A stretch of 43,856 nt of DNA, from the IMG/VR virus record IMGVR_UViG_3300010375_000006, positions 1-43,856 of that record; one strand, 5' to 3'. This document shows, one piece after another, positions 124 through 43,856 of the stretch. The notes beneath the pieces are model-generated. The model made no database searches, was not told where the DNA came from, and saw nothing but the letters and a program-made list of their open reading frames with translations. How positions within the stretch are numbered: the stretch's first letter is position 1; each line of letters opens with the position of its first letter. The position numbers were made by a program, and so were the translations under genes. Source of the DNA: a virus.

Positions 124-562
124 GCAGCATCACTTTATCACTGCGCTTCGTCTTACGCTGGCGGACGATCAGTTCAACCGGGCGCTCTTTCAACCGCGCG
201 TACATGATCTGATGACCGGCCGGGCCTGGGAAGCCATGTTCGGAAACGATCGCGTCATAATCCTGCCCGCAATCTTCCTTTGCCCTGATCTCGGTCAGCT
301 GCCATCCTTCACGGGCGCATGTTTCACGGACGAAGAAGCGCGTCCTTTCGACGCCGATTCCGGTATTGATGTGCAGGACTTCGCAGCCCGGCACGTTCTT
401 CATGCACCAAGCAGTGGCGCCGAGGCTGCCATCTCCGCCGGACAGCATCGCGAACACAGCCACCGGTTTATGCTCAAGTGCCCGCGCTACGATCTCGGCC
501 GGAGACGGTCTCTCGACCGCAAACATCTCGAATTGGACGCCGCAGAACTCTCGACTATCCAT
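1..562 (-). CDS. PP-loop ATPase / PAPS-reductase family protein, 5' part of a gene split by the window ends (full length about 281 aa with 43450..43733)
   Basis: Absent from the ORF track because it runs off the window. My translation: MDSREFCGVQFEMFAVERPSPAEIVARALEHKPVAVFAMLSGGDGSLGATAW...KGAQMWVNPMYWAGQSFIY. It carries the PP-loop motif SGGxxS. ATG 562..560 overlaps the upstream stop (TAATG). Confidence 0.8.
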   Translation of the reverse strand, partial: MDSREFCGVQFEMFAVERPSPAEIVARALEHKPVAVFAMLSGGDGSLGATAWCMKNVPGCEVLHINTGIGVERTRFFVRETCAREGWQLTEIRAKEDCGQDYDAIVSEHGFPGPAGHQIMYARLKERPVELIVRQRKTKRSDKVMLLTGICHDDSVRRSGYGGREVNFKGAQMWVNPMYWAGQSFIY

Positions 563-1191
563 TACCCTTCTTCCTGCGGCAGGAGGGAGAGGATTGCTCT
601 GGCTTTGGTGAGGGACGGCTCGACTTTTGCGTCTGCCATCGCCTGATAGTGGCGCGACATTGCCCGCCTAGTCCCTTCGGTTTTGTCCATGGCGTCGGCC
701 CAATCCAAAGACAGTTTCCAATAAAATTCCGCGCCTTTCCAAGCCTCCGGATCAATGATCCGCGCTATCGCCTCTTCCGCACCCTCAGATAGAGGGGTGG
801 GGGATTGCTTGGCGGTGAAGGTGGCCACGTCCACAATCCAGGCGTTGCCGAGACAACGTGGACATTGCATCGAACAAGCCGCCTCATCCAAGCCGTCCGC
901 CACTTCGCCTTCGCCCTCACAGACGGGGCACGGCATTACACAATGTTCCAGCTTCCCCTCCCCATCGCTAGCGGCGGGATGGCTGGCGAGAGCGGCGCGG
1001 GTGTTCCAGGCGACGATTGCTTTATTGGGCGCGTCACCATCCCGCCATTCGGCATCGGCAACAGGTTGAACCGGGCACTCATTTTCGTCCGGGCAAAAAA
1101 CCATCGCCGCACCGTAGCTGTTATCCTCGCATACCAGCGGCTGCTTTCCGCAAAATGGGCAAGGCAGCAGCGCCTCCTCTGCCCCGGTCAC
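562..1191 (-). CDS. Lar-like (restriction alleviation family) zinc-finger protein fused to a second CxxC..CxxC finger and a C-terminal domain
   Basis: LLPCPFCGKQP...FCPDENECPV...AIVAWNTRA resembles the Lar-family pattern. A second finger is CPVCEGEGE...CPRC. The GTG start at 1191 overlaps the upstream stop (GTGA). The longest ORF extends to 1296. Confidence 0.6.
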   Translation of the reverse strand: MTGAEEALLPCPFCGKQPLVCEDNSYGAAMVFCPDENECPVQPVADAEWRDGDAPNKAIVAWNTRAALASHPAASDGEGKLEHCVMPCPVCEGEGEVADGLDEAACSMQCPRCLGNAWIVDVATFTAKQSPTPLSEGAEEAIARIIDPEAWKGAEFYWKLSLDWADAMDKTEGTRRAMSRHYQAMADAKVEPSLTKARAILSLLPQEEG

Positions 1192-1700
1192 TGTCCCTGC
1201 TCCTGATTGTTCTCGGGCGTCTCCCCTTCGGGGCCGGGCTCTTGCCCTTCGGGTCGAACCTCCTGCGGAGTTTCGCCGCTTCGCGCGGCGATCCATGACG
1301 CGTGGTCAGCTCGCATTCTCGCATCGAAGGCGTTCCATTTGCGCTCCTCGACATCGCTTAAGTACGCTAAGCCGGCCTTGGTGATCGTGTATCCGGCGCC
1401 CATCTTGCCGTCTTCGGAGCAAAGAGACTGAGCGTATTCAAGCAAGCCCTTGCGAGCGAGAGCGCGGACAGAGCGACGGATTGCCGGTTTCGGCGTCTTG
1501 CAATTCTCGGCGACTAGGCGGAAGCCAAAGCCATACCCCTCCTCGCATTCATCCCAGGCGGTCAACGTTTCTTCTTCGGTGGCCGATAGCGTCACTGCGC
1601 TAGGGATGCTCACCGAACGGCCAAGACCCGTAGGGGCTTGGGGCGAAGCCTGAGCAGCCCGGTCGGCTTCAGCCGAAGCGCCCTGAATATCCCCGGTCAC
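1188..1700 (-). CDS. Hypothetical protein, possible winged-helix domain, acidic C-terminus
   Basis: 170-aa ORF. IRRSVRALARKGLLEY...GYTITKAGLAYL looks like a wHTH. Coupled to neighbours on both sides. Confidence 0.55.
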   Translation of the reverse strand: MTGDIQGASAEADRAAQASPQAPTGLGRSVSIPSAVTLSATEEETLTAWDECEEGYGFGFRLVAENCKTPKPAIRRSVRALARKGLLEYAQSLCSEDGKMGAGYTITKAGLAYLSDVEERKWNAFDARMRADHASWIAARSGETPQEVRPEGQEPGPEGETPENNQEQGQ

Positions 1701-8285: not shown

Positions 8286-8293
8286 GCGCAGCC

Positions 8294-14059: not shown

Positions 14060-14129
14060 ATTATGTCATATGCACAGGACAGAAAATCCCGTGTAACTGG
14101 TCTGCCGAGCATAGCCATGGAGGCTCGGC

Positions 14130-14291
14130 ATGACCATCCTGGGTTTGATATTGGTATTGATCCTGCTGGCGGTCCTGCTGCCCGTGGCAGGCGTCTCGCT
14201 CGATCCGCAAATCATGCGCATCATCCTGGTGCTTCTCGTCATCGCTGCGGTCGTGTGGCTCTTCACTGGCTCCGGCCTGTTGCGCGCGTAA
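14130..14291 (+). CDS. Very hydrophobic 53-aa two-TM peptide (not in track)
   Basis: My translation: MTILGLILVLILLAVLLPVAGVSLDPQIMRIILVLLVIAAVVWLFTGSGLLRA. GGAGG lies 6 nt upstream of the ATG. Confidence 0.55.
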   Translation: MTILGLILVLILLAVLLPVAGVSLDPQIMRIILVLLVIAAVVWLFTGSGLLRA

Positions 14292-14295
14292 AACT

Positions 14296-14775
14296 GTGGG
14301 ATCACGTAAATCAGACTTGGTTGTGGTCGCGCCACAGGCGGAGAATGGTCGCCCGAGCAAATATCAGCCGGACTTTGCCGACCAAGCCCGCAAGCTGTGC
14401 TTGCTCGGCGCGACTGATGGTGAACTGGCGGACTTTTTCGAAGTCTGTGAGGCAACCATCAATAATTGGAAAAGGGATCACCCGGGCTTTTTAGAGTCCA
14501 TTCGTGCAGGCAAGGTGAAGGCGGACGCTGAGGTGGCCGACAGCCTCTATCGCCGCGCCACTGGTGAGACAGTAGAACTCGAAAAGGTCATGAAGAAGGA
14601 CGATGGCTCTTACGAGGCCGTCCGGTATAAATCCTACATTCCAAGCGATCCGGCCGCCGCTTACCGCTGGCTGCAAAACCGTCGTTCGCAGAACTGGACG
14701 GATAAACAACTCGTAGAGCACACGGGGTCTGTGTCGGTGGTGGAGAGGCGAATTGTCTCGAACCCTGCGAATTGA
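14296..14775 (+). CDS. terS: Terminase small subunit
   Basis: GRPSKYQPDFADQARKLCLLGATDGELADFFEVCEATINNWKRDHPGFLESI is the typical TerS HTH pattern. It sits immediately upstream of and overlaps TerL. Confidence 0.8.
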   Translation: MGSRKSDLVVVAPQAENGRPSKYQPDFADQARKLCLLGATDGELADFFEVCEATINNWKRDHPGFLESIRAGKVKADAEVADSLYRRATGETVELEKVMKKDDGSYEAVRYKSYIPSDPAAAYRWLQNRRSQNWTDKQLVEHTGSVSVVERRIVSNPAN

Positions 14776-32137: not shown

Positions 32138-32488
32138 TCAGTCAACCGTAAGAGGGCAAAGATCCGCCACGCCTAAAGTTATAATGTAAGGGCTCCCGAG
32201 CTTGTCATAAACGCATATTTTCGACATGCCTTGTGTATAGCTGCGCTTTAGAAACCCAGCCCCGGCTGGCCCGCGTGCCGCACTAGGCGGAGGCGGACTG
32301 TCTCGCATAGCGGCGCTGGCAGCGGCAAAAGCGGCGGCGCGACGCGCGTTCACTGCTCTCACCTGAGCTGCGCACTCATCGTAATAGGCCGCCGAGTATT
32401 GGGAGCATGTTTTCGACACGCTCATACAGCCGGAAAGCGTGAGAGATAGGCTGGCAATAGCCGCGCCGCGGAAGAAATGAGCCCCCAT
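32138..32488 (-). CDS. Reverse-strand lipoprotein moron (116 aa)
   Basis: Signal peptide plus lipobox: MGAHFFRGAAIASLSLTLSGC. It opposes the whole late operon. Its 3' part is AT-richer. The longest ORF extends to 32560. Confidence 0.65.
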   Translation of the reverse strand: MGAHFFRGAAIASLSLTLSGCMSVSKTCSQYSAAYYDECAAQVRAVNARRAAAFAAASAAMRDSPPPPSAARGPAGAGFLKRSYTQGMSKICVYDKLGSPYIITLGVADLCPLTVD

Positions 32489-32581
32489 AGGGGGCACGTC
32501 AATACACCCCTTCACATGGGGCGGGCAAGCGAAACTGGCCGCCCTCCAAAAGTGGAACATCGTCAGGGCTTTCTTTCGCAG

Positions 32582-32612
32582 GTGTGGCTACGATAGCCAC
32601 ACCCTTTGTTTG
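32582..32612 (+). terminator. Hairpin terminator candidate
   Basis: GTGTGGCTA-cga-TAGCCACAC (perfect 9-bp stem) followed by cctttgtttg. Confidence 0.45.
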
Positions 32613-32637
32613 CACCCTGCGCCGCACATGCTATAAG
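32610..32637 (+). promoter_or_regulatory. Sigma70-like promoter candidate ahead of the distal tail-fibre and lysis genes
   Basis: TTGCAC-16 nt-TATAAG, about 65 nt upstream of ATG 32702. Confidence 0.4.
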
Positions 32638-32701
32638 GCCGCATTGATCCCAGTCGCTCGGGCGACAGATCGCTCTGCTAACCAGCGATGCGGGATCAAT
32701 C

Positions 32702-33340
32702 ATGGCGAAAAATGCCGTTACGGACTGGAGCGCCACCCCAGCCAACAACACAGACATAGCGGGCACCTCGATAGCGGTAGGCTGCCCGCCTTCCGACGTC
32801 GGCATTTTCATGCGCACCAATATGGCGCAGATCGCCGCATGGATTGCCGATCCAGCCGGTCCGCTCCTGAAGTCTGGGGGCACGATCGCGGGCAATCTGG
32901 CTGTTACAGGCACGTTCGGTGTGACCGGGAATGCAACGTTCGCAGGCAGCTTGACAGTTACCGGCAACACGCATGTCTCTTACGGTTCAACGGTCACGGA
33001 CGGCGCTTCAACTGATCGACTGATCGGTTATCGGAACCTGCCTTTCACGGCAGCCACTTCCGGCCGAACACTCGCCTTGACCGATGTCGGGATGGCCATT
33101 CCCGCGACGGGCGCGATCAACATCCCGACCAATGCGGCGTCGGCTTTCGCGATCGGCGATATCGTCGCGGTCTATAACAATTCCGGGTCCAGCATCTCTA
33201 TCACCGCATCCGGTGGCGTGACCTTGCGCCTGGGTGGCTCGGCCACAACCGGAACCCGCACCCTCGCCCAGCGTGGGCTGGTGACCCTCCTGAAAGTCGC
33301 AACCGATGAATGGGTTGCGCTGAACGGCGGTATCTCATGA
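32702..33340 (+). CDS. Tail fibre protein
   Basis: NTDIAGTSIAVGCPPSD...GGTIAGNLAVTGTFGVTGNATFAGSLTVTGNT is a typical fibre N-terminal pattern. Confidence 0.7.
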   Translation: MAKNAVTDWSATPANNTDIAGTSIAVGCPPSDVGIFMRTNMAQIAAWIADPAGPLLKSGGTIAGNLAVTGTFGVTGNATFAGSLTVTGNTHVSYGSTVTDGASTDRLIGYRNLPFTAATSGRTLALTDVGMAIPATGAINIPTNAASAFAIGDIVAVYNNSGSSISITASGGVTLRLGGSATTGTRTLAQRGLVTLLKVATDEWVALNGGIS

Positions 33341-33735
33341 CCGGAATGGCGATGGCAGCTGCGGGGGGCAAAACCGCCTATCCCCCGCTGGTCAACGGCT
33401 TCTCGTGGGTCAGCGGAACGACGAGTTTCAACATCAGCGCGGCGAACGTGCGTCTGTCTGATTTGAACAGCCTGAACGTCATCGGCGGCTCCGCAAGCGG
33501 CGGCTCCGGTTCGTACAGCATCAACACTTATATCACCGTTGATTCAAGTTCCGGCGATCCAACGGCCATCATGTTCCTTGCCTCTGACGGCGGCACGCAC
33601 ACCACGATCTCGGTCAATAACTTTACGACTATCGGGACCCTCATCAACGCGCACCTGCACGTGGACGTGACCGACACCGTTACTGGGCTGACCGCCAATT
33701 ACAGCACCCCCATCAATGTGGCCAGGACCAGCTGA
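33337..33735 (+). CDS. Hypothetical tail-fibre-associated protein (132 aa)
   Basis: ATGA coupling. Beta-rich. Confidence 0.55.
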   Translation: MTGMAMAAAGGKTAYPPLVNGFSWVSGTTSFNISAANVRLSDLNSLNVIGGSASGGSGSYSINTYITVDSSSGDPTAIMFLASDGGTHTTISVNNFTTIGTLINAHLHVDVTDTVTGLTANYSTPINVARTS

Positions 33736-33926
33736 TGTCGCACACCAAACCCGAATCCTTCTGCGAGATGATAAAACTCGCGCTTGACCACGCGCCCGAC
33801 GCGGCGGCCACAGCCATGCTGCGCTCCCTCGAAATCAATTATTGCAGCGGTATAACCGCGCAAGGCGATTCAGGGCGCCATCCCCATACCGACAGCGGCG
33901 GAACCACTCCGCCTCCGGGCAAATGA
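33735..33926 (+). CDS. Hypothetical protein (63 aa)
   Basis: TGATG coupling. Confidence 0.45.
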   Translation: MSHTKPESFCEMIKLALDHAPDAAATAMLRSLEINYCSGITAQGDSGRHPHTDSGGTTPPPGK

Positions 33927-33938
33927 GCAAGCCGGGCG

Positions 33939-34445
33939 ATGTATGATGGGGTCTCGCTCTCACTGGATGCCGTCAAGGGCTGGGGCGGCTGGTCCCTGTT
34001 CTTCCTTGCCATCATCTGGTGGATACGGGGAGCCCCTGATCGCAGGCGCGCGGCAACGGAGGATGCCGTCCAGCGCAAAAAGGTCGAGATCGAGGCGGAA
34101 GCTGCGCTTCAGGCCCGTAATGGCGAACTTATCGGCGCCCTCTCCAGGCGTATCGATCAAGTGGTGCGTGAGCATGAGGCGGACCGCAATAGCTGGAGCA
34201 ACGAGCGCGCCGCGATGCGGGCGGAACATGAGGCCGATCGCCGCCGTCACGATGAGGAACGCGAGCAATGGCGCCGGGAACGATCGCAGCTCCTCGAACA
34301 GGTCGACGGGCTTGAGCGCAAGCTGCAGTCCTATGGCTCGTCCGCGCTGCATCTGCAGGAGGGGCCGGTCAACGCGCCGACTACGATTGCGCGCCTTGTG
34401 CCGGATGCAGGCCCGGTGAAGCGCAACAGGGGCCCGAGACGATGA
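33939..34445 (+). CDS. Membrane-anchored coiled-coil protein (168 aa)
   Basis: TM segment WGGWSLFFLAIIWWI followed by a long charged helix (R/E-rich). Confidence 0.6.
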   Translation: MYDGVSLSLDAVKGWGGWSLFFLAIIWWIRGAPDRRRAATEDAVQRKKVEIEAEAALQARNGELIGALSRRIDQVVREHEADRNSWSNERAAMRAEHEADRRRHDEEREQWRRERSQLLEQVDGLERKLQSYGSSALHLQEGPVNAPTTIARLVPDAGPVKRNRGPRR

Positions 34446-34933
34446 CGAGCTACTTCGTCTCCCTTGGCGCCTGCTGGCTGGTCTGCATGTCGTGCGGCGG
34501 GTCGTACGAGCGCACCGCGGCAAGCGTCGTGCTTCTGAATGGGGTCGCGAACGAAGTCTGCGTGCGGATCAGCGGCGATTACACGCCGTGGATCTGGTTT
34601 CTGATGACCGACACGGTTGCCTGCCTGATCCTGACGGCGCCCCACAATGGGCGGTTGCGCATACCCCAATCGGGCACCGTGGGGGCGGTGCTGGCGGCGA
34701 CCTATGCCACGCAGATCATCATGCACCTGAGTTACGGAATGAGTTCAAACGGGCGGGCGTACACATACTGGCAGAGCCTTACAGCGATGGCCTGGCTGCA
34801 ACTCCTGATCCTTTTCATGGGGGGGATGTCGCATGGCTGTGGTCGTCTTGGTCGTCGGATACGTCGCCATATTCCCGTGGCTTCTCAGACGCATCTGGGC
34901 CGCGTGGGAACGGCGAACGAGGGAGAAGGCTGA
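34442..34933 (+). CDS. Multi-pass membrane protein (163 aa), holin/antiholin candidate
   Basis: About four hydrophobic segments, directly upstream of the endolysin. ATGA coupling. Confidence 0.55.
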   Translation: MTSYFVSLGACWLVCMSCGGSYERTAASVVLLNGVANEVCVRISGDYTPWIWFLMTDTVACLILTAPHNGRLRIPQSGTVGAVLAATYATQIIMHLSYGMSSNGRAYTYWQSLTAMAWLQLLILFMGGMSHGCGRLGRRIRRHIPVASQTHLGRVGTANEGEG

Positions 34934-35605
34934 ATGAGCGGAGGCCCCATAGACTGGCCAGCAACCCAGCGCCTGTTGGGCGTGACCCCCGATGGCATTC
35001 CGGGGCGGCAAACCTATCTTGCGATCGTCGATCTCGTCGGCCAGCCATGCCAGCCCGTCGCCAATTGCCTGGCTAAATTCGCCCCCAGTTACGGCATGAC
35101 GACGCCGCCACGACTGGCTGAGTTCGTGGCGCAGATCGCGAACGAAACAGGCGGCTTCACTGTCTGGGAAGAAAACCTGCATTACAGCGCGGCCGGGCTT
35201 CTGCGCACATGGCCATCGCATTTCAATGCGGACATAGCCGAACGGTGCGCCGGCCAGCCGCTTCTGATCGCGGAACGGGCCTATGGCGGGCGCATGGGGA
35301 ACGGCCCAGAGGGCTGCGGCGAAGGCTGGAAATACCGCGGTCGCGGCGCGCTGCAGCTGACCGGCAAGGACGCCTATAGCAAGTTCGGCAAGACGCTGGG
35401 GATAGACCTGACTGCCCACCCCGAGGTGGCTGCAGATCCCTATAACAGCACGTTGATAGCGCTCGAATTCTTCAAGGAATTGCACGTCAACGATGCGGTC
35501 GATGCCGGTGATTTCGTCAAGGCGCGGCGGCTGACGAACGGCGGATCGATCGGGCTTGAGCATGTCGCAGAGTTGCGCGCCAAGCTGCTGGCGAAGCTGA
35601 TATGA
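34934..35605 (+). CDS. Endolysin: PG-binding domain plus glycoside hydrolase family 19 catalytic domain
   Basis: LGVTPDGIPGRQTYLAIV is the PG-binding motif. GH19 motifs: FVAQIANETGGF..WEENLHYS...YGGRMGNGPEGCGEGWKYRGRGALQLTGKDAY. Confidence 0.9.
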   Translation: MSGGPIDWPATQRLLGVTPDGIPGRQTYLAIVDLVGQPCQPVANCLAKFAPSYGMTTPPRLAEFVAQIANETGGFTVWEENLHYSAAGLLRTWPSHFNADIAERCAGQPLLIAERAYGGRMGNGPEGCGEGWKYRGRGALQLTGKDAYSKFGKTLGIDLTAHPEVAADPYNSTLIALEFFKELHVNDAVDAGDFVKARRLTNGGSIGLEHVAELRAKLLAKLI

Positions 35606-35889
35606 GCCTGACCAACATCCTCAAGAATATCAATGGCGAGTTCGAGATCGGCCGCGTCTGGCTGTCGATCGGCACCGGATCAATGGTCGTCGCCCCTGTC
35701 GTGTTTCAAGGGATCGACACGTTCAAGAACGGGCATTGGGACCCGGCCGCATTCTGTGGCGGCTACGGCCTGGGCCTAGGCGGCCTGATCACCTCCGGCG
35801 TCCTCGCGATCGGCAACAAGGACAAGAATGTCGCCGTCGCGCGCCAGACGCAGGCGATGCCGCCGCTCAGCGATACGGAGACCAAGTGA
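35602..35889 (+). CDS. Holin candidate (95 aa, two TM segments)
   Basis: VWLSIGTGSMVVAPVVF and GGYGLGLGGLITSGVLAI. ATGA coupling to the endolysin. Confidence 0.6.
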   Translation: MSLTNILKNINGEFEIGRVWLSIGTGSMVVAPVVFQGIDTFKNGHWDPAAFCGGYGLGLGGLITSGVLAIGNKDKNVAVARQTQAMPPLSDTETK

Positions 35890-36131
35890 TGTTCAGCCTG
35901 ATCGCCCTCGCTCTCGCCAGCCAATCGGTATCGAAAGCCACTTGGGTCGATGTTTGTTCGGAGCGGGATAGCCCGCGCGCCTGCGCCCGAGCCATGCGGC
36001 GCTGGGACCGGATCGCCTACAAGGTCTGCGGCCCCGACGGCATGGTGGACTGGGATGGCTATCCCGGAAAACCGGCCTGCAACCGAAGCGGGTGGGACGG
36101 CCAGCGCTATCACCAAAAGGGGGCCGAGTGA
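35889..36131 (+). CDS. Secreted small Cys-containing protein (80 aa)
   Basis: Signal-like N-terminus MFSLIALALASQSVSKA. TGATG coupling. Confidence 0.5.
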   Translation: MFSLIALALASQSVSKATWVDVCSERDSPRACARAMRRWDRIAYKVCGPDGMVDWDGYPGKPACNRSGWDGQRYHQKGAE

Positions 36132-36544
36132 TGCCCATCTGGCTCCTCGGCGCCTGGCGCTTCATCCGCCCTCTTATGCCGTACATCGCCGCTGCGCTCG
36201 TCGTGCTGGGGCTGCTCTCCGCATACGGTCATCGGGAATATGGCCGGGGCAAGCATAGCCGGGACGCAGAGGTCGCGCGCATCACGCAGGACCGCGACAC
36301 GCACGCGGCGAACGAACGGATCCTGCAGGCCGCCCTGGACCGCCAGAACGCCGCTGTGGTGGCGTTGAAGACGGAAGCGGACCAACGGGTCGCGGCCGGT
36401 CAAAAGGCCGTCGCGGAGGTCCGTAAAGCGAACCAGAGCCTGCAAACACAAGCAGAGATGCTGCGCCGATCCGGCAACAAGGCGGTCCCGAAGGATCGGC
36501 CATGCGTGCCGAGCCCCGCACTCGTGATGGTGGGAAAGATATGA
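36131..36544 (+). CDS. i-spanin (Rz-like)
   Basis: N-terminal TM segment (IAAALVVLGLLSAY) plus a coiled-coil periplasmic domain. Followed by a lipoprotein gene. Confidence 0.7.
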   Translation: MPIWLLGAWRFIRPLMPYIAAALVVLGLLSAYGHREYGRGKHSRDAEVARITQDRDTHAANERILQAALDRQNAAVVALKTEADQRVAAGQKAVAEVRKANQSLQTQAEMLRRSGNKAVPKDRPCVPSPALVMVGKI

Positions 36545-36804
36545 AACGCGCCCTTGTCCTCGCGCTGGCCCTCTCGTCCTGCGCCACGCCACCAGCACCC
36601 CAGATCGTCACCAAAGAGGTGAAGGTCCCCGTGCCTGTTGCTTGTGTCAACAAAGCCGCGGTTCCGATCGAACCAGATGCCGTTGTGATCCCGCTGACGG
36701 ATGCCCGCCTCGCCGCCGACATCGCTGCATCTCAGGCGCTCAAATACAAGGCCTGGGGGCGCGAGCTTTACGCGCTGATCGTGCCAGCCTGTACAAAGGA
36801 ATAG
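36541..36804 (+). CDS. o-spanin (Rz1-like lipoprotein)
   Basis: Lipobox in MKRALVLALALSSC. Pro-rich mature N-terminus. 4-nt overlap with the i-spanin (separated architecture). Confidence 0.75.
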   Translation: MKRALVLALALSSCATPPAPQIVTKEVKVPVPVACVNKAAVPIEPDAVVIPLTDARLAADIAASQALKYKAWGRELYALIVPACTKE

Positions 36805-36808
36805 CGTC

Positions 36809-38107
36809 ATGCAAATCGGCGTCAACCTATCTCCGCCCCGTCCATTCGGAGAACAGATGTTCATGAACCTGATGCTCCAATCGGGGGCATTGCAGGGCGG
36901 CGGGGTCCAGGTTGTCGCCCCGGATAGGCGAGGGCTGGACTATGCCGTATCGATCCCGCCAGAGTTCGCAGGCATGGTCAAGCAGCAGCCATGGGGCCTC
37001 TCGATCGACCCCAGCGTAACAGCCGTCCCGAACATGATCTATGCCCGTAAAAGCGATATCGGGCTGATCAAGGCCGGGCAGGTATTCCGAACCCAACAGC
37101 TCAACATCCTTCGCCCCATGGCCTGCATCCGGTTCATGGATTGTATGGCCACCAACGCCAACCAGACGCCGTTCTACACCGCCTCGATCGGCGATACGTC
37201 CTACGTCCACGGCATGCCGGTTCCGGTGATGGCGATGCTGTGCAACACGGTCGGGGCGGATGCGTGGATCAACATCCCGGTCCGTATGTCGGATGCGGAT
37301 GCGAAAACATTGGTCGTGTTGTTCCGCGAGTTGCTGGACCCCGGCCTGAACCTCTACGTCGAGTTCTCGAACGAGGTGTGGAACGCGACCTATTGGGCGA
37401 TGCACTACGCCAATGAGCAGGGCAACGCGAAATGGCCCGCCGATCCTACAGCCAGGAAACAGCCCCCCAATGCCGGCCAGCGTTGGTACGGCATGCGCTG
37501 CGCCCAGCTTTCCGCCGCCGTAGCAGGCCCCGGCATCCGGTTCGTCATGGGTACGCAGACCATGAACCCCGGCCTCGCAAAGGCTGTCCTGCTGGGCTTT
37601 GACGAAGCTGGCGGGGTCAACGCCAACGTCTATGGCTGGTCGTTCGCGGCGTATGTGGATGGGGGAATCAAAGGCGACAAGCTGGTTGCCCTGTCGGAAG
37701 CCGGGGATATTCCTGGGGCGATCGATGCCCTGATGAACGATCCGGTCCGCGGCATGCCAAAGATGCGGACGATCTACACGCAGCAGGCCGCGATCGGGGC
37801 GTCCAGAGGATGGGAACCGGTTGTTTACGAAGGGAACACCAGCCTGATCGCGCGTGGTATTGCAGATCCGGCAGCGAAGGCAAAAGCCATTGCGTTCGTG
37901 AAGGCGGTGACCGAGGACGAACGCGTTGCCCCGGTGCATGAAGCCAACCTTGCCGCGCTGAAAGCCGCTGGCGTCGTCCTGTGCAACCTGTTCAATACGA
38001 GCGGTGGGCCGGGAGAATATGGTTATTGGGGGCTCGTCCCGTCATTGGATCATCCGGAGGGAAATCCAGCCTGGCAGGTGGCGCGGAAGTGGGCGCTTGC
38101 GGCTTAG
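36809..38107 (+). CDS. Putative (beta/alpha)8 clan GH-A-like glycoside hydrolase, no signal peptide
   Basis: YVEFSNEVWN is a candidate acid/base NE motif. WEPVVYEGNTS is a candidate nucleophile Glu. It is the last gene of the late operon, after the spanins. AAGGAA RBS. Confidence 0.5.
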   Translation: MQIGVNLSPPRPFGEQMFMNLMLQSGALQGGGVQVVAPDRRGLDYAVSIPPEFAGMVKQQPWGLSIDPSVTAVPNMIYARKSDIGLIKAGQVFRTQQLNILRPMACIRFMDCMATNANQTPFYTASIGDTSYVHGMPVPVMAMLCNTVGADAWINIPVRMSDADAKTLVVLFRELLDPGLNLYVEFSNEVWNATYWAMHYANEQGNAKWPADPTARKQPPNAGQRWYGMRCAQLSAAVAGPGIRFVMGTQTMNPGLAKAVLLGFDEAGGVNANVYGWSFAAYVDGGIKGDKLVALSEAGDIPGAIDALMNDPVRGMPKMRTIYTQQAAIGASRGWEPVVYEGNTSLIARGIADPAAKAKAIAFVKAVTEDERVAPVHEANLAALKAAGVVLCNLFNTSGGPGEYGYWGLVPSLDHPEGNPAWQVARKWALAA

Positions 38108-38283
38108 CCCTTAAGCACCTCATCAGTTCCATCCGGGTGTCTGTAAACAGGAATGCCGGGGTCGGAGGGGCGCTTGAACCACTCAAGCAACTTATCTGCC
38201 GCGTCCAAATCGTTTTGGGTTGTGTGTCCCGCAATAAACCCAAGCTCCCGTAGTTTGGCGACCAACGCCTCTCGCTCGCTCAC
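38104..38283 (-). CDS. Micro-ORF, 59 aa (not in track), last gene of the accessory operon
   Basis: My translation: VSEREALVAKLRELGFIAGHTTQNDLDAADKLLEWFKRPSDPGIPVYRHPDGTDEVLKG. AGGAG lies 8 nt upstream of the GTG. Its stop overlaps the stop of the convergent GH gene. Confidence 0.55.
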   Translation of the reverse strand: MSEREALVAKLRELGFIAGHTTQNDLDAADKLLEWFKRPSDPGIPVYRHPDGTDEVLKG

Positions 38284-38462
38284 GGCTTACTCTCCTGTTC
38301 AAGGGTGGATAGCAGTTCATTGGCAAGCACTGCCAACGCTGCACCCTGCATCTTCCGCGTGCCGTCCTTCTCTGCGTCTGCCTGCCTGTCGTATGCAAGG
38401 GCGCGATGGACGATGTCGAGGTGTAGCCTCTTTAGGATGGCGTCAAGGGCGGCGGTGGCCAG
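38280..38462 (-). CDS. Coding-like frame without a canonical start (CTG start or TGA read-through product)
   Basis: The frame is open from the in-frame TGA at 38475..38477: NRRELATAALDAILKRLHLDIVHRALAYDRQADAEKDGTRKMQGAALAVLANELLSTLEQESKP. It ends in a GTGA overlap with the next gene. Confidence 0.35.
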   Translation of the reverse strand: MATAALDAILKRLHLDIVHRALAYDRQADAEKDGTRKMQGAALAVLANELLSTLEQESKP

Positions 38463-38474
38463 CTCGCGGCGGTT

Positions 38475-38708
38475 TCACTTGGTCGCCTCTCGGATGCGGT
38501 AGTAGATAACATCTCCCGTCCCGAAACGGTGTTGCCATTGCCACGTATCAGCGCGTCGCGGACCGGACTGAACATGCAGACCATTGCGCATCATCCTGAA
38601 CCTCACTTCTACAAGCGTATCAGGCGGGACCGGACACTCTCCACCGCCCCACAGCTTCCAGCCGCGCCAATAGCCAGGAGGCACTTTTTCTTTCGGGTCA
38701 GCCATCAT
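38475..38708 (-). CDS. Hypothetical Trp-rich protein (about 77 aa)
   Basis: MMADPKEKVPPGYWRGWKLWGGGECPVPPD...TWQWQHRFGTGDVIYYRI. GGAGG lies just upstream of the tandem ATGs. The longest ORF extends to 38750 (TTG). Confidence 0.6.
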   Translation of the reverse strand: MMADPKEKVPPGYWRGWKLWGGGECPVPPDTLVEVRFRMMRNGLHVQSGPRRADTWQWQHRFGTGDVIYYRIREATK

Positions 38709-38774
38709 CTCCTCCCCGCACGGCTTCGGCGGTACCCAGCCTTTCCGCAAGCGATAGCAGATCCTGAGGGGTCG

Positions 38775-39023
38775 TCATGCGGGCAGACATTCGAACAGTT
38801 GACCATCATACGACAGGCTTGCGCGCATCGCGGAAACGCGCCTTTCCGCCTCCGCCTGATCATACGCCCAAACCTCGGTGGAATATGTTTTGCCGTCCAT
38901 CTCATAGCTGAGCAGGAAACAATAAAGCGGCCGGCCATATTCATCCTTGCGGACAAATTCAGAGGATGGCTGTGCCGCCGCATTTCTACGCGCCGTTAAG
39001 TCTATGATTTTGTCGTCGTCCAT
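38775..39023 (-). CDS. Hypothetical protein (82 aa)
   Basis: AGGAG lies 9 nt upstream of the ATG. No motif recognised. Confidence 0.6.
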   Translation of the reverse strand: MDDDKIIDLTARRNAAAQPSSEFVRKDEYGRPLYCFLLSYEMDGKTYSTEVWAYDQAEAERRVSAMRASLSYDGQLFECLPA

Positions 39024-39056
39024 CTCATCATCTCCTATACGGACGGGGGGAGGGGT

Positions 39057-39374
39057 TTACCCGATTGCCAGGATTGCAGCACGCCATTGCTCGATCATCT
39101 CGGCTGTTCTGGCCTTCATGTCGAACCGCCCGCAAATCGGAGCCTTCATGGAGGGCCCGCGCGATCGGCCCCTATCATGGTATTCCTTCGGGCAAGCTCG
39201 CGTCATCCAAAGACGGCACGAACCACACTGCCGTTGAGCATCCCGAATACGCGCCTCAAGCTCTCGGCGCTTCTGCTGGTTCTGAGACCATTGGCTGAGC
39301 GACGTCGCCCAATCCCAAAGCTCTGTCCCGCTCGGCGAAACTTCGCGTGGCGGTTCCGGTACATGCGCGCTCAC
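39057..39374 (-). CDS. Hypothetical Cys-containing protein (105 aa)
   Basis: CGSCRLWMTRACP...APICG. GTG start with a GGGAGGGGG stretch upstream. Confidence 0.55.
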   Translation of the reverse strand: MSAHVPEPPREVSPSGTELWDWATSLSQWSQNQQKRRELEARIRDAQRQCGSCRLWMTRACPKEYHDRGRSRGPSMKAPICGRFDMKARTAEMIEQWRAAILAIG

Positions 39375-39420
39375 ATCCCCCTCCCATCATATAATACAGG
39401 GGTGGGGGAGGGGTGGCGGG

Positions 39421-39615
39421 TCATAGAGGCACCTTTTCGAAAGAGGGGGCGCATCGCCCAACAAGCGGGAGCCACTGGTAGCCGGTAACCCGCATCCATG
39501 CGTGATGCGTGATGCGTTCCTGCACTGCCCCACAATTGGCGCAGCGGCGCTTGATGGGCCCCAAGATGCCATTTTCTTCGGAGGCATCGGCCCACCTGTG
39601 CTTCACGACCTTCAT
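39421..39615 (-). CDS. Hypothetical zinc-ribbon-like protein (64 aa)
   Basis: MKVVKHRWADASEENGILGPIKRRCANCGAVQERITHHAW. ATGA coupling. Confidence 0.5.
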   Translation of the reverse strand: MKVVKHRWADASEENGILGPIKRRCANCGAVQERITHHAWMRVTGYQWLPLVGRCAPSFEKVPL

Positions 39616-39716
39616 ACCAAAAACCCGATAGCCAGCCCGATGACTAGCCACGTCAAGCCGGACAGCACTTGAACCGGATCACGCCAATAGGCCCGCTCAA
39701 TGATAGTGTTGCTCAT
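39612..39716 (-). CDS. Micro-ORF, 34-aa membrane peptide (not in track)
   Basis: My translation: MSNTIIERAYWRDPVQVLSGLTWLVIGLAIGFLV. ATGA overlaps at both ends. Confidence 0.45.
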   Translation of the reverse strand: MSNTIIERAYWRDPVQVLSGLTWLVIGLAIGFLV

Positions 39717-40009
39717 GACAGGGTCTCCGCGTGCTCGGCTGCTCGGGCCTGATGCGAGAAAGTATGCACTTTCCCATCACGGCCGAATCCGCCGTTGCGC
39801 TTCAAATACATCCCGCACTCGTTAACGATGACGTAGCGGCGATACCGCCCCTGATAATGGGTTGCGACCGTGTACCGAAGCGCCTCGCAACCCCATGACC
39901 AGATCGCGCCAGTTTCAGGATCGCCGTCGTCACTAAACCACTCGTTCCGCAGCTCAAATGGCGTCTCCATCGGCGTGACCTGAATGCGGCGGTTGCGGGG
40001 CTGAAACAT
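39713..40009 (-). CDS. Hypothetical protein (98 aa), first gene of the accessory operon
   Basis: ATG 40009 has GGAG upstream. No motif recognised. The longest ORF extends to 40072, across the promoter region. Confidence 0.6.
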   Translation of the reverse strand: MFQPRNRRIQVTPMETPFELRNEWFSDDGDPETGAIWSWGCEALRYTVATHYQGRYRRYVIVNECGMYLKRNGGFGRDGKVHTFSHQARAAEHAETLS

Positions 40010-40025
40010 TGCCTTGTCTCCGTAA

Positions 40026-40083
40026 AGCATATGCTCTAAATACAGCATATGGCTTTGGACGCAATAGCGCATATGCTAAATAA
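40026..40083. promoter_or_regulatory. Three GCATATGC-type palindromic operator candidates within overlapping divergent promoters
   Basis: AGCATATGCT (40026..40035), AGCATATG (40044..40051) and CGCATATGCT (40068..40077). Plus strand: TTGGAC(40055)-16-TAAATA(40082). Minus strand: TTGCGT(40064)-16-TATTTA(40037). Confidence 0.5.
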
Positions 40084-40138
40084 TTCCACCTTGGATGAAA
40101 AAGGCACATGCGATACGCCCCGCCGCGTGGGCAGGCGC

Positions 40139-40282
40139 ATGGAATATCCTGAGAAGCGGGAGGCGGCGTTTAAGCCGGGGACGCTAGATCGCATCCAAGG
40201 GGCTTTGCGCGACGATGAAACACAGGTCGGCTTCATCCGCGAAGCCGTGGAGCGAGAGCTGGAACGGCGGGCGAAAGGCTGA
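40139..40282 (+). CDS. Ribbon-helix-helix regulator candidate (47 aa from ATG 40139)
   Basis: FKPGTLDRIQGALRDDETQVGFIREAVERELERR has the RHH layout. The longest ORF starts at 40049, which lies upstream of the predicted plus-strand -10. Confidence 0.5.
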   Translation: MEYPEKREAAFKPGTLDRIQGALRDDETQVGFIREAVERELERRAKG

Positions 40283-40296
40283 TCAATCCGCCCCAA

Positions 40297-40315
40297 GTGG
40301 GTAAAATAGTGGGCA
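40297..40315 (+). promoter_or_regulatory. Arm-type repeat pair (GTGGGTA / GTGGGCA), left of the attP core
   Basis: Direct heptamers at 40297 and 40309. Confidence 0.45.
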
Positions 40316-40337
40316 GGCTCTCTAGCTATACAGCCTC

Positions 40338-40361
40338 GTTCGAATCCCACCCTCTCCGCCA
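40338..40361 (+). other. attP core: 3' end of a tRNA (T-loop, T-stem 3' strand, acceptor 3' strand, discriminator G, CCA); Ser-like, tentative
   Basis: GTTCGAATCCCACCCTCTCCGCCA. The sequence 5' of it cannot form the T-stem or the rest of a tRNA. Confidence 0.7.
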
Positions 40362-40449
40362 GTAATCTTTCGCCGGGGTTCGCTGGCGACCGCATTCCCC
40401 TCCTGTAGCGCGACTTTTGTTCCACTGACGTTCGCTTGCGTTCGCCGCC

Positions 40450-41664
40450 GTGCGCGGTCCATACGTGGGCAAACGGTGGGCAGAGAATCGGACTGTGGGC
40501 AGATTGACCGCTCGGAAGGTGGAGACGCTCAACGAACCGGGGCGTTATTCCGATGGGGACGGCACTGGTTTTCATCTGCGAGTCACGAAGGAAGGCGGCA
40601 AATATTACGTCCTGCGCACTACGGTGCAGGGTGAGCGGAAGGACTTCACGCTTGGTTCGGCCAAGCGAATCACCCTTGCAGCGGCGCGAGCGAAGGCGGC
40701 TCTTATTCAAGAAAGCCTCGATGCTCATGGCAAGGTGCTGCCCACCGAAATGCCCACTTTCGCCGATGCGTCCCGTTCTGCCCACAAGGCGCTCACGGCC
40801 GGGCTCCGGAACATCAAGCATAAAGCGCAATGGCTCTCCACGCTGGAAACATATGCTTTCCCCGTGGTGGGCGATAGGCCGATCAACGAGGTTGAACGCG
40901 CGCACGTCGTTCAGATCCTGTCCCCAATCTGGCTGGAAAAGCGCGAAACGGCCGACAGGACGTTGCAACGCATTGACCGGGTGATGAGCTGGGCTGTCGG
41001 GCATGGATTCCGCAACAGCAGGGTAGACATGGCCTTGGTCCGCGATGCCCTCCCGCGCCGTGGCAGGCGCAAGCGCTCCGAGATACGCCGTATGCCAGCG
41101 GTGCCCTGGGCCGAAGCGCCGGCTTTCTTCGCAGCGATACCAATGAGCCGTAGTGTAATCGAGGTCCGCCTGGCGATGACCTTTTACCTGCTCACCATAC
41201 CAAGGCCGGGCAATATCTATCTCGCCAAGCGCGACCAGATCGACTTGGCTGCCGCTGTGTGGAGCATACCAGACGAGGAAATGAAGGCTGGGGAGCCGCA
41301 TCGCATTCCGCTTTCGCCGGCCGCGGTGGAGGTCGCTCGTTCCATAATGGACATGCACGAACACGAATTGCTGTTCACAGTCTCGGGCAAGCCAATGTCG
41401 CCAGATACGCTTAGGATGATGATGCGTCGGATGGGGCGAACTGAGACACCGCACGGGTTTCGCTCCACCTTCAAGGACTGGGCCAGAGCCTCCGGATACC
41501 CTGACGACCTTAGCGAAATGGCGCTCGCCCATGCCGATCCTAACGAGGTGCGCGCCGCCTACGCGAGAGATGATCTACTCGAAGAACGGCGCCCTATGAT
41601 GCTTGCTTGGTCGGCATATTTGGCAGGGTTTCCGCATACGCGAGCAGGGACTTCACAGGGATGA
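40450..41664 (+). CDS. int: Tyrosine integrase (P4-type, with an N-terminal arm-binding domain)
   Basis: GRLTARKVETL..PGRYSDGDGTGFHLRVTKEGGKYYVLR is the arm-binding N-terminal domain. The C-terminus carries HGFRSTFKDWA...ALAH......AYAR catalytic motifs. The true start may be GTG 40495. Confidence 0.92.
   Translation: MRGPYVGKRWAENRTVGRLTARKVETLNEPGRYSDGDGTGFHLRVTKEGGKYYVLRTTVQGERKDFTLGSAKRITLAAARAKAALIQESLDAHGKVLPTEMPTFADASRSAHKALTAGLRNIKHKAQWLSTLETYAFPVVGDRPINEVERAHVVQILSPIWLEKRETADRTLQRIDRVMSWAVGHGFRNSRVDMALVRDALPRRGRRKRSEIRRMPAVPWAEAPAFFAAIPMSRSVIEVRLAMTFYLLTIPRPGNIYLAKRDQIDLAAAVWSIPDEEMKAGEPHRIPLSPAAVEVARSIMDMHEHELLFTVSGKPMSPDTLRMMMRRMGRTETPHGFRSTFKDWARASGYPDDLSEMALAHADPNEVRAAYARDDLLEERRPMMLAWSAYLAGFPHTRAGTSQG
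40465..40501 (+). promoter_or_regulatory. Arm-type repeat triplet (GTGGGCA x3), right of the attP core
   Basis: Heptamers at 40465, 40476 and 40495. The last one contains the alternative int start GTG 40495. Confidence 0.45.
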
Positions 41665-41800
41665 CCGTGGAGCGGCCCTGTTTCTTGGCCTCGATCTTGC
41701 CGGCGTTGATCAGCTCGTAGAGGTATGTCTTGCCGCACGCGAGCATGGCCGCGCCACGGTCTGGACTGACGAGAATGGGATATTCGTTGTCGTTCATCAC
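41594..41800 (-). CDS. xis: Excisionase / AlpA-family HTH protein
   Basis: LVSPDRGAAMLACGKTYLYELINAGKIEAKKQGRSTVIPVKSLLAY has the MerR-type excisionase layout. It is the last gene of the leftward operon and overlaps the int 3' end. Confidence 0.7.
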   Translation of the reverse strand: MMNDNEYPILVSPDRGAAMLACGKTYLYELINAGKIEAKKQGRSTVIPVKSLLAYAETLPNMPTKQAS

Positions 41801-42321
41801 ATCCCCCTCTTTGAAAGCAGGGCACGGGCTTTGCGGAATTCCTCCGGGTGAGGGGCGGCGCGAACATTCTCGATCCCGCCATAATGGACCCCGCTCGTGA
41901 ACTTGACTGCCGCTTCCGCGAACGGTCTCAGCCCCTCTTCAAGCTCTGAGATGCGGGCGATGAGGCGCGCCCTCTCAGTGGAGGAACTGAAATCCGTGGT
42001 CGGCGGAGAATTGCGAAGAATCGCCCTACAGTGAGAGCATAGCCCGCCCGAAGTCGGGCCGTCGCAGCTTACGCAGACAAATGCCTTACCCTCCTGTGCG
42101 CGGAGATGGTCGCGGAGGGCGAGGCCGAGGGGCGTGAAGCGGAACATGGGATTCCCTATCCCGTCTTGACTCTCCGCGAGCGCCCCAATGGTCACGAGCG
42201 CTCGACACGCACGATGGCGAGCGCCAGCATAGAAGCGATGCGTGGAGATACCCATGGGCTGCGATAGGATCGCCTTCTGCGCCTCCGACAGCCCGGCAGC
42301 CATCCTCTCTACAGCGGTCAT
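41797..42321 (-). CDS. Hypothetical protein with a CxxC..CxxC zinc ribbon (174 aa)
   Basis: FVCVSCDGPTSGGLCSHC. ATGA coupling on both sides. Confidence 0.6.
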   Translation of the reverse strand: MTAVERMAAGLSEAQKAILSQPMGISTHRFYAGARHRACRALVTIGALAESQDGIGNPMFRFTPLGLALRDHLRAQEGKAFVCVSCDGPTSGGLCSHCRAILRNSPPTTDFSSSTERARLIARISELEEGLRPFAEAAVKFTSGVHYGGIENVRAAPHPEEFRKARALLSKRGM

Positions 42322-42557
42322 GACGGCTGCCTCGCTGCGTTGATACAGGCGTGGAAGAACAGGACCGCGGCGTCGGCTTGCTTGCGGAAATTGTCGGCCA
42401 ATCCAGGGTTAAGCTGATCGGCATCCGCCAGAGCCTGAGCCGCGTTCATGCCAGCAGGTGGCTTTGCGCCGATAGCGGCTTTCAGCATGGCCAAGGCGAG
42501 TTCGTCGCGCGGGATTTCGATCCCGAGGAGCGTCCGCTTTGCCTTAGCGGCGCTCAT
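42318..42557 (-). CDS. Hypothetical protein (79 aa)
   Basis: ATG 42557 overlaps the upstream stop (ATGA). Confidence 0.55.
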   Translation of the reverse strand: MSAAKAKRTLLGIEIPRDELALAMLKAAIGAKPPAGMNAAQALADADQLNPGLADNFRKQADAAVLFFHACINAARQPS

Positions 42558-43453
42558 GACGTGGGGTCCGTGCTGAGTGCTGCGAGGTATTCTTTCCAAG
42601 CATCGTCGATGGTCGAAATGCAGGGCCTGCTTGTTTCCTCTGCGATCTGGAAGCCTCGCGCGAAGGCGAATGTGAACGCCTCCCGCGCGCTATCCGGCTG
42701 TGCAGGGCGGAACGGTTTGCCGATCTCAGACTGATCGGGAACGGCAGCGATGGGTAGGCGGCGGAAGAATTCGTCTCGATAGGCGCCCCATGCTTCACCG
42801 ATCGCGATGTCCTCAATCTCGCGCATGGCTTCATCTGCATCAGTCGCATCGTACCCTTCGGGGAATTTTGCGTAGAGGAAGCCCTCGCGGAAGCCGTTAT
42901 AGAACGTGTCACGCCCTGCTTCGTCGGCCGGATCATAGAGTTCATTGTAAGCCTCGACGGTTAGCGGCGCCTCCCGCGTCATGGCGGGCGCTGCTTGCTT
43001 GAGGGATGCTTCGAAGCGGGCAGGTAGAGAAGCGACAAACTGATCAATCGTGTCGTAATGTTCAACATGGGGCAGATGGTGAAACACTGTCTCACGCGGT
43101 CCTATAATAGTCAGCCTGTGCCCAAGAGCCAGTGCGAGACCAAATTCGATATGTCGCCCACCACGTGTATTGCTGCGGGGCTCTTCCATCAGACTGATCG
43201 TCCAATTTGCCGCCCGAACATCGTCCACGTCTTCCAGCGCAAACCTTTGGCGTTCATGATCCTCGGCTTGACGAGATAAGCCAGTCGGTAAAACATGGTC
43301 GCAGTCCGGCTTTACCCAGCGGCTTGTGATCACCGCCCCCCTATCTTTGAGTGCGTGCGCCAGCTGGTTGCATTCCGGACGGCGGCTAAACCGTGCGGCG
43401 ATGTAAATGCATTGGCTCGGCATCAAAGGCTCGCTTGTAGATGCGTTTGTCAT
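42554..43453 (-). CDS. Nucleoside 2-deoxyribosyltransferase-like (Rossmann-like) N-terminal domain fused to an unknown C-terminal domain (299 aa)
   Basis: CIYIAARFSRRPE...ITSRWV...LEDVDDVRAANWTISLMEEPRSNTRGGRHIEFGLALALGHRLTIIG follows the NDT/DUF4406-type pattern as I remember it. ATG 43453 overlaps the PP-loop gene stop (ATGA). Confidence 0.5.
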   Translation of the reverse strand: MTNASTSEPLMPSQCIYIAARFSRRPECNQLAHALKDRGAVITSRWVKPDCDHVLPTGLSRQAEDHERQRFALEDVDDVRAANWTISLMEEPRSNTRGGRHIEFGLALALGHRLTIIGPRETVFHHLPHVEHYDTIDQFVASLPARFEASLKQAAPAMTREAPLTVEAYNELYDPADEAGRDTFYNGFREGFLYAKFPEGYDATDADEAMREIEDIAIGEAWGAYRDEFFRRLPIAAVPDQSEIGKPFRPAQPDSAREAFTFAFARGFQIAEETSRPCISTIDDAWKEYLAALSTDPTS

Positions 43454-43856
43454 GGTGCGATCCTTTCCGACTTCAGGCAATTGACGCACATCGGAGAGAA
43501 CATCTCCGCCGTAAGCGTGTCCCGATCCTTCGGAGGCCTGTCTTCCCAGCCCCACGGATGCCTGTTGCTGATGCGATGTTGCAGCGCCTCGATCCGAGCG
43601 GCCGTGGCGGGGCAAACGCGGCGCACCATCGCCAGCTCACCTTTGTCGGCGAACGCGCCACATAAGCACTCCCCAGACATGCCCAGTTCGATCGCAACAG
43701 GATTGCGTGGCAAGCCGGTGGCCTTAAGATGATGGTAGATGAAAGACTGTCCGGCCCAATACATGGGGTTGACCCACATTTGAGCGCCCTTGAAGTTGAC
43801 CTCGCGCCCTCCGTAGCCGCTCCGCCGGACGCTATCGTCGTGACATATCCCGGTTA
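43450..43856 (-). CDS. PP-loop / PAPS-reductase family protein, 3' part (continues from 124..562 across the circular junction)
   Basis: ...MWVNPMYWAGQSFIYHHLKATGLPRNPVAIELGMSGECLCGAF...RVCPATA...PMCVNCLK. The C-terminus is Cys-rich. Confidence 0.8.
   Translation of the reverse strand, partial: TGICHDDSVRRSGYGGREVNFKGAQMWVNPMYWAGQSFIYHHLKATGLPRNPVAIELGMSGECLCGAFADKGELAMVRRVCPATAARIEALQHRISNRHPWGWEDRPPKDRDTLTAEMFSPMCVNCLKSERIAP
43734..43856. repeat. Terminal direct repeat, copy 2 (identical to 1..123)
   Basis: Same 123-nt string as 1..123. It lies inside the ORF 43450..43779, which continues in frame at window position 124 onward on the minus strand. Confidence 0.95.

Follow-up and report, generated by a model that had tools for sequence, protein, structure and literature searches.

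Neighbours rather than a conserved pair: a PAPS-reductase-like gene and a mosaic NDT-like gene in the early operon of a temperate phage

Do two genes that share a stop/start overlap in a phage early operon also share a function? The question is raised by IMG/VR virus record IMGVR_UViG_3300010375_000006, a stretch of 43,856 nucleotides that we analysed at full length and call the window. It carries a gene for a 281-aa protein with a PP-loop of the PAPS-reductase family, and the TGA of this gene overlaps, as ATGA, the ATG of a gene for a 299-aa protein (protein 2) whose N-terminal part resembles nucleoside 2-deoxyribosyltransferases (NDTs). A preliminary description of the window, made from its letters, had noted the overlap, which is seen in the sequence, and read the two genes as a candidate functional pair, a two-enzyme route acting on nucleotides, DNA bases or a signalling nucleotide. 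Our results do not bear this out. We favour, with moderate confidence, the reading that the PP-loop gene and protein 2 are two independent, individually mobile early accessory genes, adjacent in the variable distal part of the leftward operon, because they do not co-occur in the other loci searched, neither has a conserved neighbour and stop/start overlaps run through the whole operon.

Both are real genes, with homologs down to E=1e-168 for the PP-loop protein and 5e-72 for the NDT-like protein. The PP-loop gene had been described as split by the window ends, and this is correct. The 123 bases at the start of the window are identical to its last 123, which gives a circular (or circularly permuted) complete phage genome of 43,733 bp, and features near either end are therefore to be read across the junction. 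Read across the join, the PP-loop gene is a single open reading frame (ORF).

Co-occurrence was tested by searching hidden Markov models (HMMs) of both families against six-frame ORFs at E<=1e-3, with the window as positive control. The loci fetched for the NDT-like family were 28 viral, 39 genomic and 80 metagenomic, and those for the PP-loop family 13 + 80 viral, in overlapping sets. The NDT-like set came to 150 loci; the upstream flank reached 900 nt or more in 114 of them and 3 kb or more in 92. A PP-loop gene was absent from all 150, and an NDT-like gene from all 83 PP-loop loci. Only the rotated window scored with the HMMs of both families.

Nor does either gene have a constant neighbour. 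The best flanking-ORF cluster of the PP-loop gene was present in 6 of 84 loci, and its neighbours, judged from translations, appear to include methylases, primases, polymerases and SSB. A Novosphingobium prophage with an 85%-identical PP-loop gene has another downstream gene, and in the eight closest viral relatives the downstream genes all differ. The most frequent neighbour of the NDT-like gene, a DUF5131-type gene by its Pfam label, was found in 7 of 71 loci. A search for Lar near NDT-like or PP-loop genes in 233 loci, with a narrow HMM built on one seed, returned only the fusion already known at locus L036. Both genes stand alone in many unrelated contexts.

The overlap that suggested a pair is a property of the whole distal operon, not special to these two genes. 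The Lar-like gene and the PP-loop gene share one base (TAATG), the junctions PP-loop/protein 2, protein 2/orf79 and orf79/orf174 all read ATGA, and orf174 and the xis-like gene overlap by 4 nt by their coordinates, so that all junctions of the six genes from Lar-like to xis-like carry a stop/start overlap of 1-4 nt. In the public gene call protein 2 has 289 aa, 97% of the 299-aa query. By our reading that call starts at Met11, which would abolish the ATGA overlap. An AGGA sits 7 nt before the first ATG, which favours the 299-aa start.

Protein 2 is itself a composite. A homology search returned 45 relatives and, besides the window’s own gene call, each covers about one third to three fifths of the query. 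The alignment splits into three separable parts, the NDT-like domain and two further modules that we call modB and modC. The C-terminal 130 aa had been left unassigned; they are two separate mobile modules and not part of the enzyme. Among the 45 relatives, the full NDT-modB-modC architecture was seen in this contig only.

The modB module, of about 80 aa, has the consensus N..FDPA.EA...F..GF.EG...EAW.AYR..F..LPLAA.P. In protein 2 it has a net charge of -12 and a pI of 4.1, and was modelled as helical with low AlphaFold2 pLDDT (about 50-67). Its position varies in the proteins of 86-451 aa that carry it, which form about 50 representative clusters, and the carriers checked all have a pI of 4.1-4.9. 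Three proteins (P0036, P0038 and P0042) carry modB without an NDT domain. The module could be a DNA mimic or serve in anti-restriction. The modC module is a motif of about 40 aa, AFTFAFARGFQIAEETSRSCISAMDDAWEEY, found in 18 clusters of otherwise different proteins of 71-416 aa, usually at or near the C-terminus, with 50-74% identity to the window sequence. The motif falls outside all Pfam and PHROG families. As F..GF and (D/E)AW..Y occur in both modules, we considered whether they are repeats of one unit, but hhalign gave a probability of 1.7% and this was rejected.

The modules also travel with other domains. A Lar domain was found in 5 of 70 modB/modC proteins, with one fusion to DUF3850 and one to DUF551. 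P0042, one of these five, combines Lar with modB. Of the NDT-like relatives, one joins Lar to the NDT-like domain (P0041). It comes from a Sphingomonas citricola prophage, where it occupies the equivalent slot and a possible integrase, a 338-aa ORF, follows a few genes downstream.

What might each protein do on its own? The profile and structure searches proposed in the preliminary description upheld its family assignments for both. The PP-loop protein is predicted to have the PAPS/APS reductase fold with an intact PP-loop. Its AlphaFold2 model has a pLDDT of 85.5, with a disordered tail (263-281, pLDDT about 40) that carries the CxxC. The best Foldseek matches were PAPS/APS reductases and the Fe-S thiolase TtuA, at E=7e-8 to 1e-6, and the matches 7rge, 2oq2, 2goy and 1sur lay between E=7e-8 and 8e-6, with TM-scores up to 0.66 (target-normalised). 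A PHROG search gave phrog_424, ‘PAPS reductase’, at E=4.7e-19. NCBIfam matches were to PAPS-reductase-type models and archaeal ‘hypothetical protein’ models only, all weak.

The protein contains LSGGDGS, ECLCG, VCP and CVNC, the motifs that had first drawn attention to it. An alignment of 42 members confirmed the PP-loop, ECxCG and CxxC as conserved, but the VCP cysteine is variable. Invariant positions are S41, G43, S46, GFPGP, T148-G149, C60, C82, C210, C212, C270 and C273, and the clade also has an LGMSGEC motif. The four cysteines C210, C212, C270 and C273 (CxC...CxxC) may hold an Fe-S cluster or zinc. The family is large, with at least 2,632 homologs at E<=1e-3 that are stand-alone and of about 278 aa. 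The best 120 are mostly of 270-290 aa and many lie on contigs of about 40-50 kb. Annotated ‘PAPS reductase-like’ relatives occur in actinophages, Rhizobium phages, haloarchaeal tailed viruses and Sulfolobus viruses.

Two familiar identities were considered for this protein, and neither was supported. The C-terminal catalytic motif of CysH is ECGLH. The window protein ends in ...CVNCLKSERIAP with no ECGLH, has a canonical SGGxxS PP-loop and scores 14.8 bits against the PAPS_reductase equivalog model TIGR02057, whose cut-off is 254.2, and it is not a CysH orthologue. It is not a recognisable DndC either, as no DndC-type or SspD-type NCBIfam model matched at E<=1 and PADLOC gave a single, marginal match, to BrxP (E=0.053). 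In three viral contigs (e.g. L120, 6869-7684) a divergent ORF that looks to be of PAPS-reductase type lies directly downstream of the PP-loop gene, which hints at paralogue pairs of PP-loop genes in some phages.

The searchable literature yielded no established function for the viral stand-alone PP-loop family. Phage PAPS reductases are flagged there as ‘deserving further investigation’, and they occur in Aca-regulated anti-defence operons (PMC13551039). It is possible, though doubtful, that the PP-loop protein is a DndC/SspD-like enzyme that marks phage DNA using the host’s Dnd or IscS proteins, or disrupts phosphorothioate-sensing restriction, with protein 2 unrelated to it. The conserved cysteines and intact PP-loop are as in DndC, phage PAPS reductases are the subject of a review-level proposal, and several relatives lie near apparent DNA methylase genes, judged from translations only. 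Resistance to Dnd came with the exchange of a Vibrio phage gene encoding a PAPS-domain/Dam fusion and of an adjacent gene whose function is unknown (bioRxiv 10.1101/2021.05.05.442762), but the Vibrio protein is a methylase fusion whereas the window protein stands alone. The failure to match any DndC-type model also speaks against this account, as does the lack of partners. The usual companions of phage PAPS-reductase-like genes (a ParB-like domain, DndA/D/E) had been described as missing, and Pfam at E<=0.001 indeed found no ParB, Dnd, methylase, Tgt or QueC domain in the 29 other non-structural ORFs (8349-14775 and 32138-40072), while DndA/D/E or SspB/C partner domains were absent from those 29 and from the 10 early-operon ORFs.

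Searched as a single sequence, protein 2 gave nothing meaningful in Pfam, PHROGs, NCBIfam, PADLOC or the PDB sequences, so profiles and structure prediction were needed. These indicate that its N-terminal domain has the NDT fold with the catalytic Asp and Glu positions kept. AlphaFold2 modelled aa 14-148 with a pLDDT of about 85-97 in most blocks and about 90 overall. Foldseek matched the model to the CMP N-glycosidase BcmB, to the Chroococcidiopsis NDT (CtNDT) and to DNPH1, with target-normalised TM-scores of about 0.55-0.67 and 10-16% identity for the DNPH1 type; many matches were to viral NDTs and some weak ones to TIR-type proteins. A 26-sequence profile of the domain matches NDT structures at E=0.018. 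Aligned with CtNDT, D75 falls on D62, E103 on the nucleophile E88 and R97 on D82. Of the two families named in the earlier assignment, the domain is closer to NDT than to DUF4406: PF05014 matches 23 of the 26 family members at E<=1 (best 2.6e-8), DUF4406 (PF14359) only one (E=0.16), with the window domain not among the matches listed. The sole link to DUF4406 was a tblastn match of 31% identity to a Rhizobium phage protein annotated as such.

The active site of this family is unusual. Y17, D75, E103, R93, R97 and R100 are invariant, and from its place in the IYIAARF strand Tyr17 would be the equivalent of the N-terminal Tyr of NDTs. Six residues before the nucleophile, nucleoside-specific NDTs have an Asp, which binds the 5'-OH, and DNPH1 has a Ser, which binds phosphate. 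Protein 2 instead has the invariant Arg97, within the loop P92-R93-S-N-T-R97-G-G-R100-H. An arginine that is invariant at the 5'-OH position, within a loop of three arginines, would suit a substrate that is anionic and 5'-phosphorylated and a hydrolytic reaction, and the clade that shares the loop would be predicted to act on phosphorylated substrates rather than to exchange the bases of nucleosides. In Chloroflexota and Dormibacterota metagenome-assembled genomes (L055-L057, L060, L062 and L069) the NDT-like gene lies in a conserved, chromosomal-looking neighbourhood with adenylate-kinase-like and alcohol-dehydrogenase-like genes, judged by the look of their translations. The domain may also have a cellular role in nucleotide metabolism.

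One reading, which we consider unlikely, makes protein 2 a multi-part counter-defence factor. Its new-clade NDT domain would cleave an anionic immune nucleotide (the candidates are a signal derived from NAD or ADP-ribose, a cyclic nucleotide, or a toxic analogue of a nucleotide), with modB and modC as DNA-mimic or docking parts of a type that Lar also carries. The PP-loop/Fe-S protein would then be a separate, widespread viral nucleic-acid-modifying or anti-phosphorothioation enzyme.

That both are auxiliary metabolic genes, supplying CysH-type sulfate assimilation and nucleoside salvage for phage DNA synthesis, seems very improbable. The features that set the PP-loop protein apart from CysH (no ECGLH, the canonical ATP-pyrophosphatase form SGGxxS and the TIGR02057 score) all speak against it, as do the arginine at the NDT 5'-OH position, which is at odds with nucleoside substrates, and the position of both genes in an accessory slot beside xis rather than among replication genes. 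In its favour, homologs are annotated as PAPS reductases in the source databases, CysH-type enzymes are the best structural matches, and the NDTs of some phages do adjust nucleotide pools (bioRxiv 10.1101/2025.10.22.683976).

We give similarly little weight to protein 2 as a prophage defence or exclusion toxin, an NDT/TIR-like nucleotide-depleting effector like that of retron Ec86. NDT-like domains do serve as immune effectors that deplete adenine nucleotides (bioRxiv 10.1101/2023.08.16.553469), and the weak structural matches to TIR-type proteins would fit. However, the gene lies without gaps in the lytic early operon between Lar and xis, which leaves no room for a promoter of its own, no sensor or partner gene is evident, and its modules recur in fusions of Lar, a phage-side anti-restriction function.

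Least probable of all is a dedicated two-step route in which, for example, a base or nucleotide adenylated or thiolated by the PP-loop enzyme would be installed or removed by the NDT-like enzyme, for DNA modification or signal destruction: the adjacency of the genes, the nucleotide-handling folds of both proteins and the want of any other recognisable partner (by Pfam) for the PP-loop enzyme in this genome are outweighed by the absence of co-occurrence, the operon-wide overlaps, the many contexts in which each gene stands alone and a second protein that looks to be a recent mosaic.

If the PP-loop gene and protein 2 are instead independent accessory genes, the slot they occupy would be a variable, recombination-prone segment between the recombination genes and xis/int, which also holds Lar. 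By analogy with DndC, TtuA and APS reductase, the PP-loop protein would be a viral PP-loop ATP pyrophosphatase that binds an adenine nucleotide and activates its substrate by adenylation or sulfonucleotide chemistry, with nucleic acids or nucleotides as the target of sulfur or redox chemistry at its cysteine site. The NDT-fold domain would cleave the N-glycosidic bond of a 5'-phosphorylated nucleotide, not swap bases, and would be followed by the acidic modB and the short modC tail, which appear to be shuffled among other phage proteins, including Lar fusions. A host-takeover or counter-defence role is plausible for each gene separately.

Several points weigh against this picture. Even with no co-occurrence elsewhere, cooperation between the two proteins might still take place in this phage. 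The loci came from pattern scans of at most 80 loci each with 6-8 kb flanks, and some contigs were counted twice, once from IMG/VR and once from JGI. The window proteins score below the gathering cut-offs of their families: PF05014 gave 17.4 bits for the NDT-like domain (cut-off 28.8, E=0.0049), and PF01507 gave 14.4 bits for the PP-loop protein (cut-off 22.5, E=0.039). As many close homologs of the latter carry a precomputed PF01507 match, it seems to belong to a divergent branch. The C-terminal half of protein 2 was modelled at low confidence. A counter-defence role, plausible as it is, leans on the place of the genes in the genome, a few fusions with Lar and a single published precedent, which concerns another PAPS-domain protein.

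The setting of the two genes is that of a temperate phage with a lambdoid layout, whose host is probably a member of the Sphingomonadaceae. A GcrA-like regulator, together with best matches in Novosphingobium and Sphingomonas, points to an alphaproteobacterial host. The leftward operon runs from a cI-type repressor through a pentapeptide-repeat protein, two HNH nucleases, Erf, a YqaJ exonuclease and a DUF968/HNH protein with small ORFs to the Lar-like gene, the PP-loop gene, protein 2, orf79, orf174 and an HTH_17 gene (Table 1). The two genes had been placed in the distal early operon between a Lar-like gene and xis, and the Lar (PF14354) and HTH_17 identifications agree with this. Besides the GcrA-like regulator, the Pfam search of the 29 other non-structural ORFs gave only SNase, Glyco_hydro_19 (probably the lysin) and HTH_Crp_2, and orf79 and orf174 had no Pfam match.

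Table 1. Coordinates of the genes, domains and motifs discussed, in window positions
Feature	Position	Strand	Details
PP-loop gene, N-terminal part (aa 1-146)	124..562	-	ATG at 562; bases 1-123 duplicate 43734-43856
PP-loop gene, C-terminal part (aa 147-281 and stop)	43450..43856	-	ORF read across the circular join
SGGDGS PP-loop	425-442		within the PP-loop gene
ECxCG	~43657-43671		within the PP-loop gene
CxxC	43477-43488		within the PP-loop gene
Protein 2 (299 aa)	42554..43453	-	start and preceding PP-loop stop share one ATGA; its stop and the next start share another
NDT-superfamily domain of protein 2 (aa 14-148)	43010..43414	-	predicted by AlphaFold2, Foldseek and profile alignment
modB (aa ~160-242)	42728..42976	-	acidic helical module, no family name
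modC (aa ~250-292)	42578..42706	-	conserved C-terminal motif AFTFAFARGFQIAEETSR.CIS..DDAW.EY
Lar-like gene (244 aa)	562..1296	-	upstream of the PP-loop gene; PF14354 E=1.1e-10; phrog_599
orf79	42318-42557	-	4-nt overlaps
orf174	41797-42321	-	4-nt overlaps
Excisionase-type HTH gene (xis-like)	41594-41800	-	HTH_17 E=8.6e-9
Tyrosine integrase	40450-41664	+	
Antisense ORF (498 aa)	40036-41532	-	antisense to the integrase gene
cI-type repressor	7600-8316		leftward operon
Pentapeptide-repeat protein (231 aa)	6441-7136	-	PF00805 E=9e-28; phrog_31265 E=1.6e-63
orf147	1840-2283		

The Lar-like protein far exceeds the 58 positions of the Lar Pfam model. A Lar zinc ribbon at aa 42-101 is followed by an Anti-TRAP-like one at aa 121-155 (PF15777 at E=5e-6, under the threshold) and by a C-terminal extension of about 90 aa. 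At the other end of the operon the integrase and excisionase-type genes are convergent, with 3' ends that share about 70 nt (41594-41664), whereas int and xis of lambda are co-directional. The ORF antisense to the integrase looks spurious, of a kind typical of high-GC DNA, and would mislead gene calling based on length. The gene for the pentapeptide-repeat protein lies downstream of the cI-like repressor gene.

The fetched loci included no close relative of the phage as a whole, with scattered homologs for Erf, YqaJ, DUF968 and orf147 only, and comparison of the region at the DNA level with 50,697 phage records gave no match. The orf147 homolog (39% identity) lies in metagenomic contig L158 (4918-5343), directly upstream of an NDT-like gene (5775-6176) in a different frame, and is another sign of accessory-gene reshuffling among related phages.

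A conserved two-enzyme module would have pointed to a new phage route for modifying DNA or nucleotides, and as the pairing is not conserved that prospect is gone. Phages are known to carry members of both superfamilies commonly; the arginine loop and the unnamed fused modules make the NDT-like clade a variant not described before rather than a new kind, and its pairing with the PP-loop gene is a one-off. The PP-loop gene is a clear example of a large viral stand-alone family often mislabelled as sulfur-metabolism genes, the NDT-fold clade has an active-site loop that predicts a phosphorylated substrate, and modB and modC could serve as markers of accessory or anti-restriction regions in alphaproteobacterial phages. 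Were the NDT-like domain to destroy immune signals, or the viral PP-loop/Fe-S family to modify nucleic acids, the weight of the finding would rise.

Set beside known systems, the PP-loop protein is closest to the stand-alone viral PAPS reductase-like proteins (phrog_424, COG0175), with which it has in common its size (about 280 aa), PP-loop, predicted fold and place in the accessory or early regions of temperate phages. It resembles APS reductase (e.g. PDB 2goy) and DndC in the predicted fold and in four cysteines that could bind a [4Fe-4S] cluster. However, the cysteines of APS reductase are spaced CC...CxxC and those of the window protein CxC...CxxC, and it lacks the ECGLH tail, the Dnd partners and a match to a DndC-type model. 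Lambda NinC, annotated as a PAPS reductase, is a marginal relative (hhalign probability 46%, E=2e-4, 116 columns), whereas the window clade has its own CxC...CxxC, GFPGP and LGMSGEC. Literature searches gave nothing on the function of NinC or of DUF4406.

Protein 2 is similar to the NDT superfamily (PF05014, the dNMP N-hydrolase DNPH1/Rcl, and BcmB/MilB) in its predicted fold, Glu nucleophile and sugar-binding Asp, but its domain is fused to two unnamed modules. In its distal early position and its shuffling of small domains it resembles the Lar/Ral-type genes and polyvalent early proteins of phages. Fusions with Lar itself are a minority among its relatives, with one among the 150 NDT-like loci beside those already counted for modB and modC.

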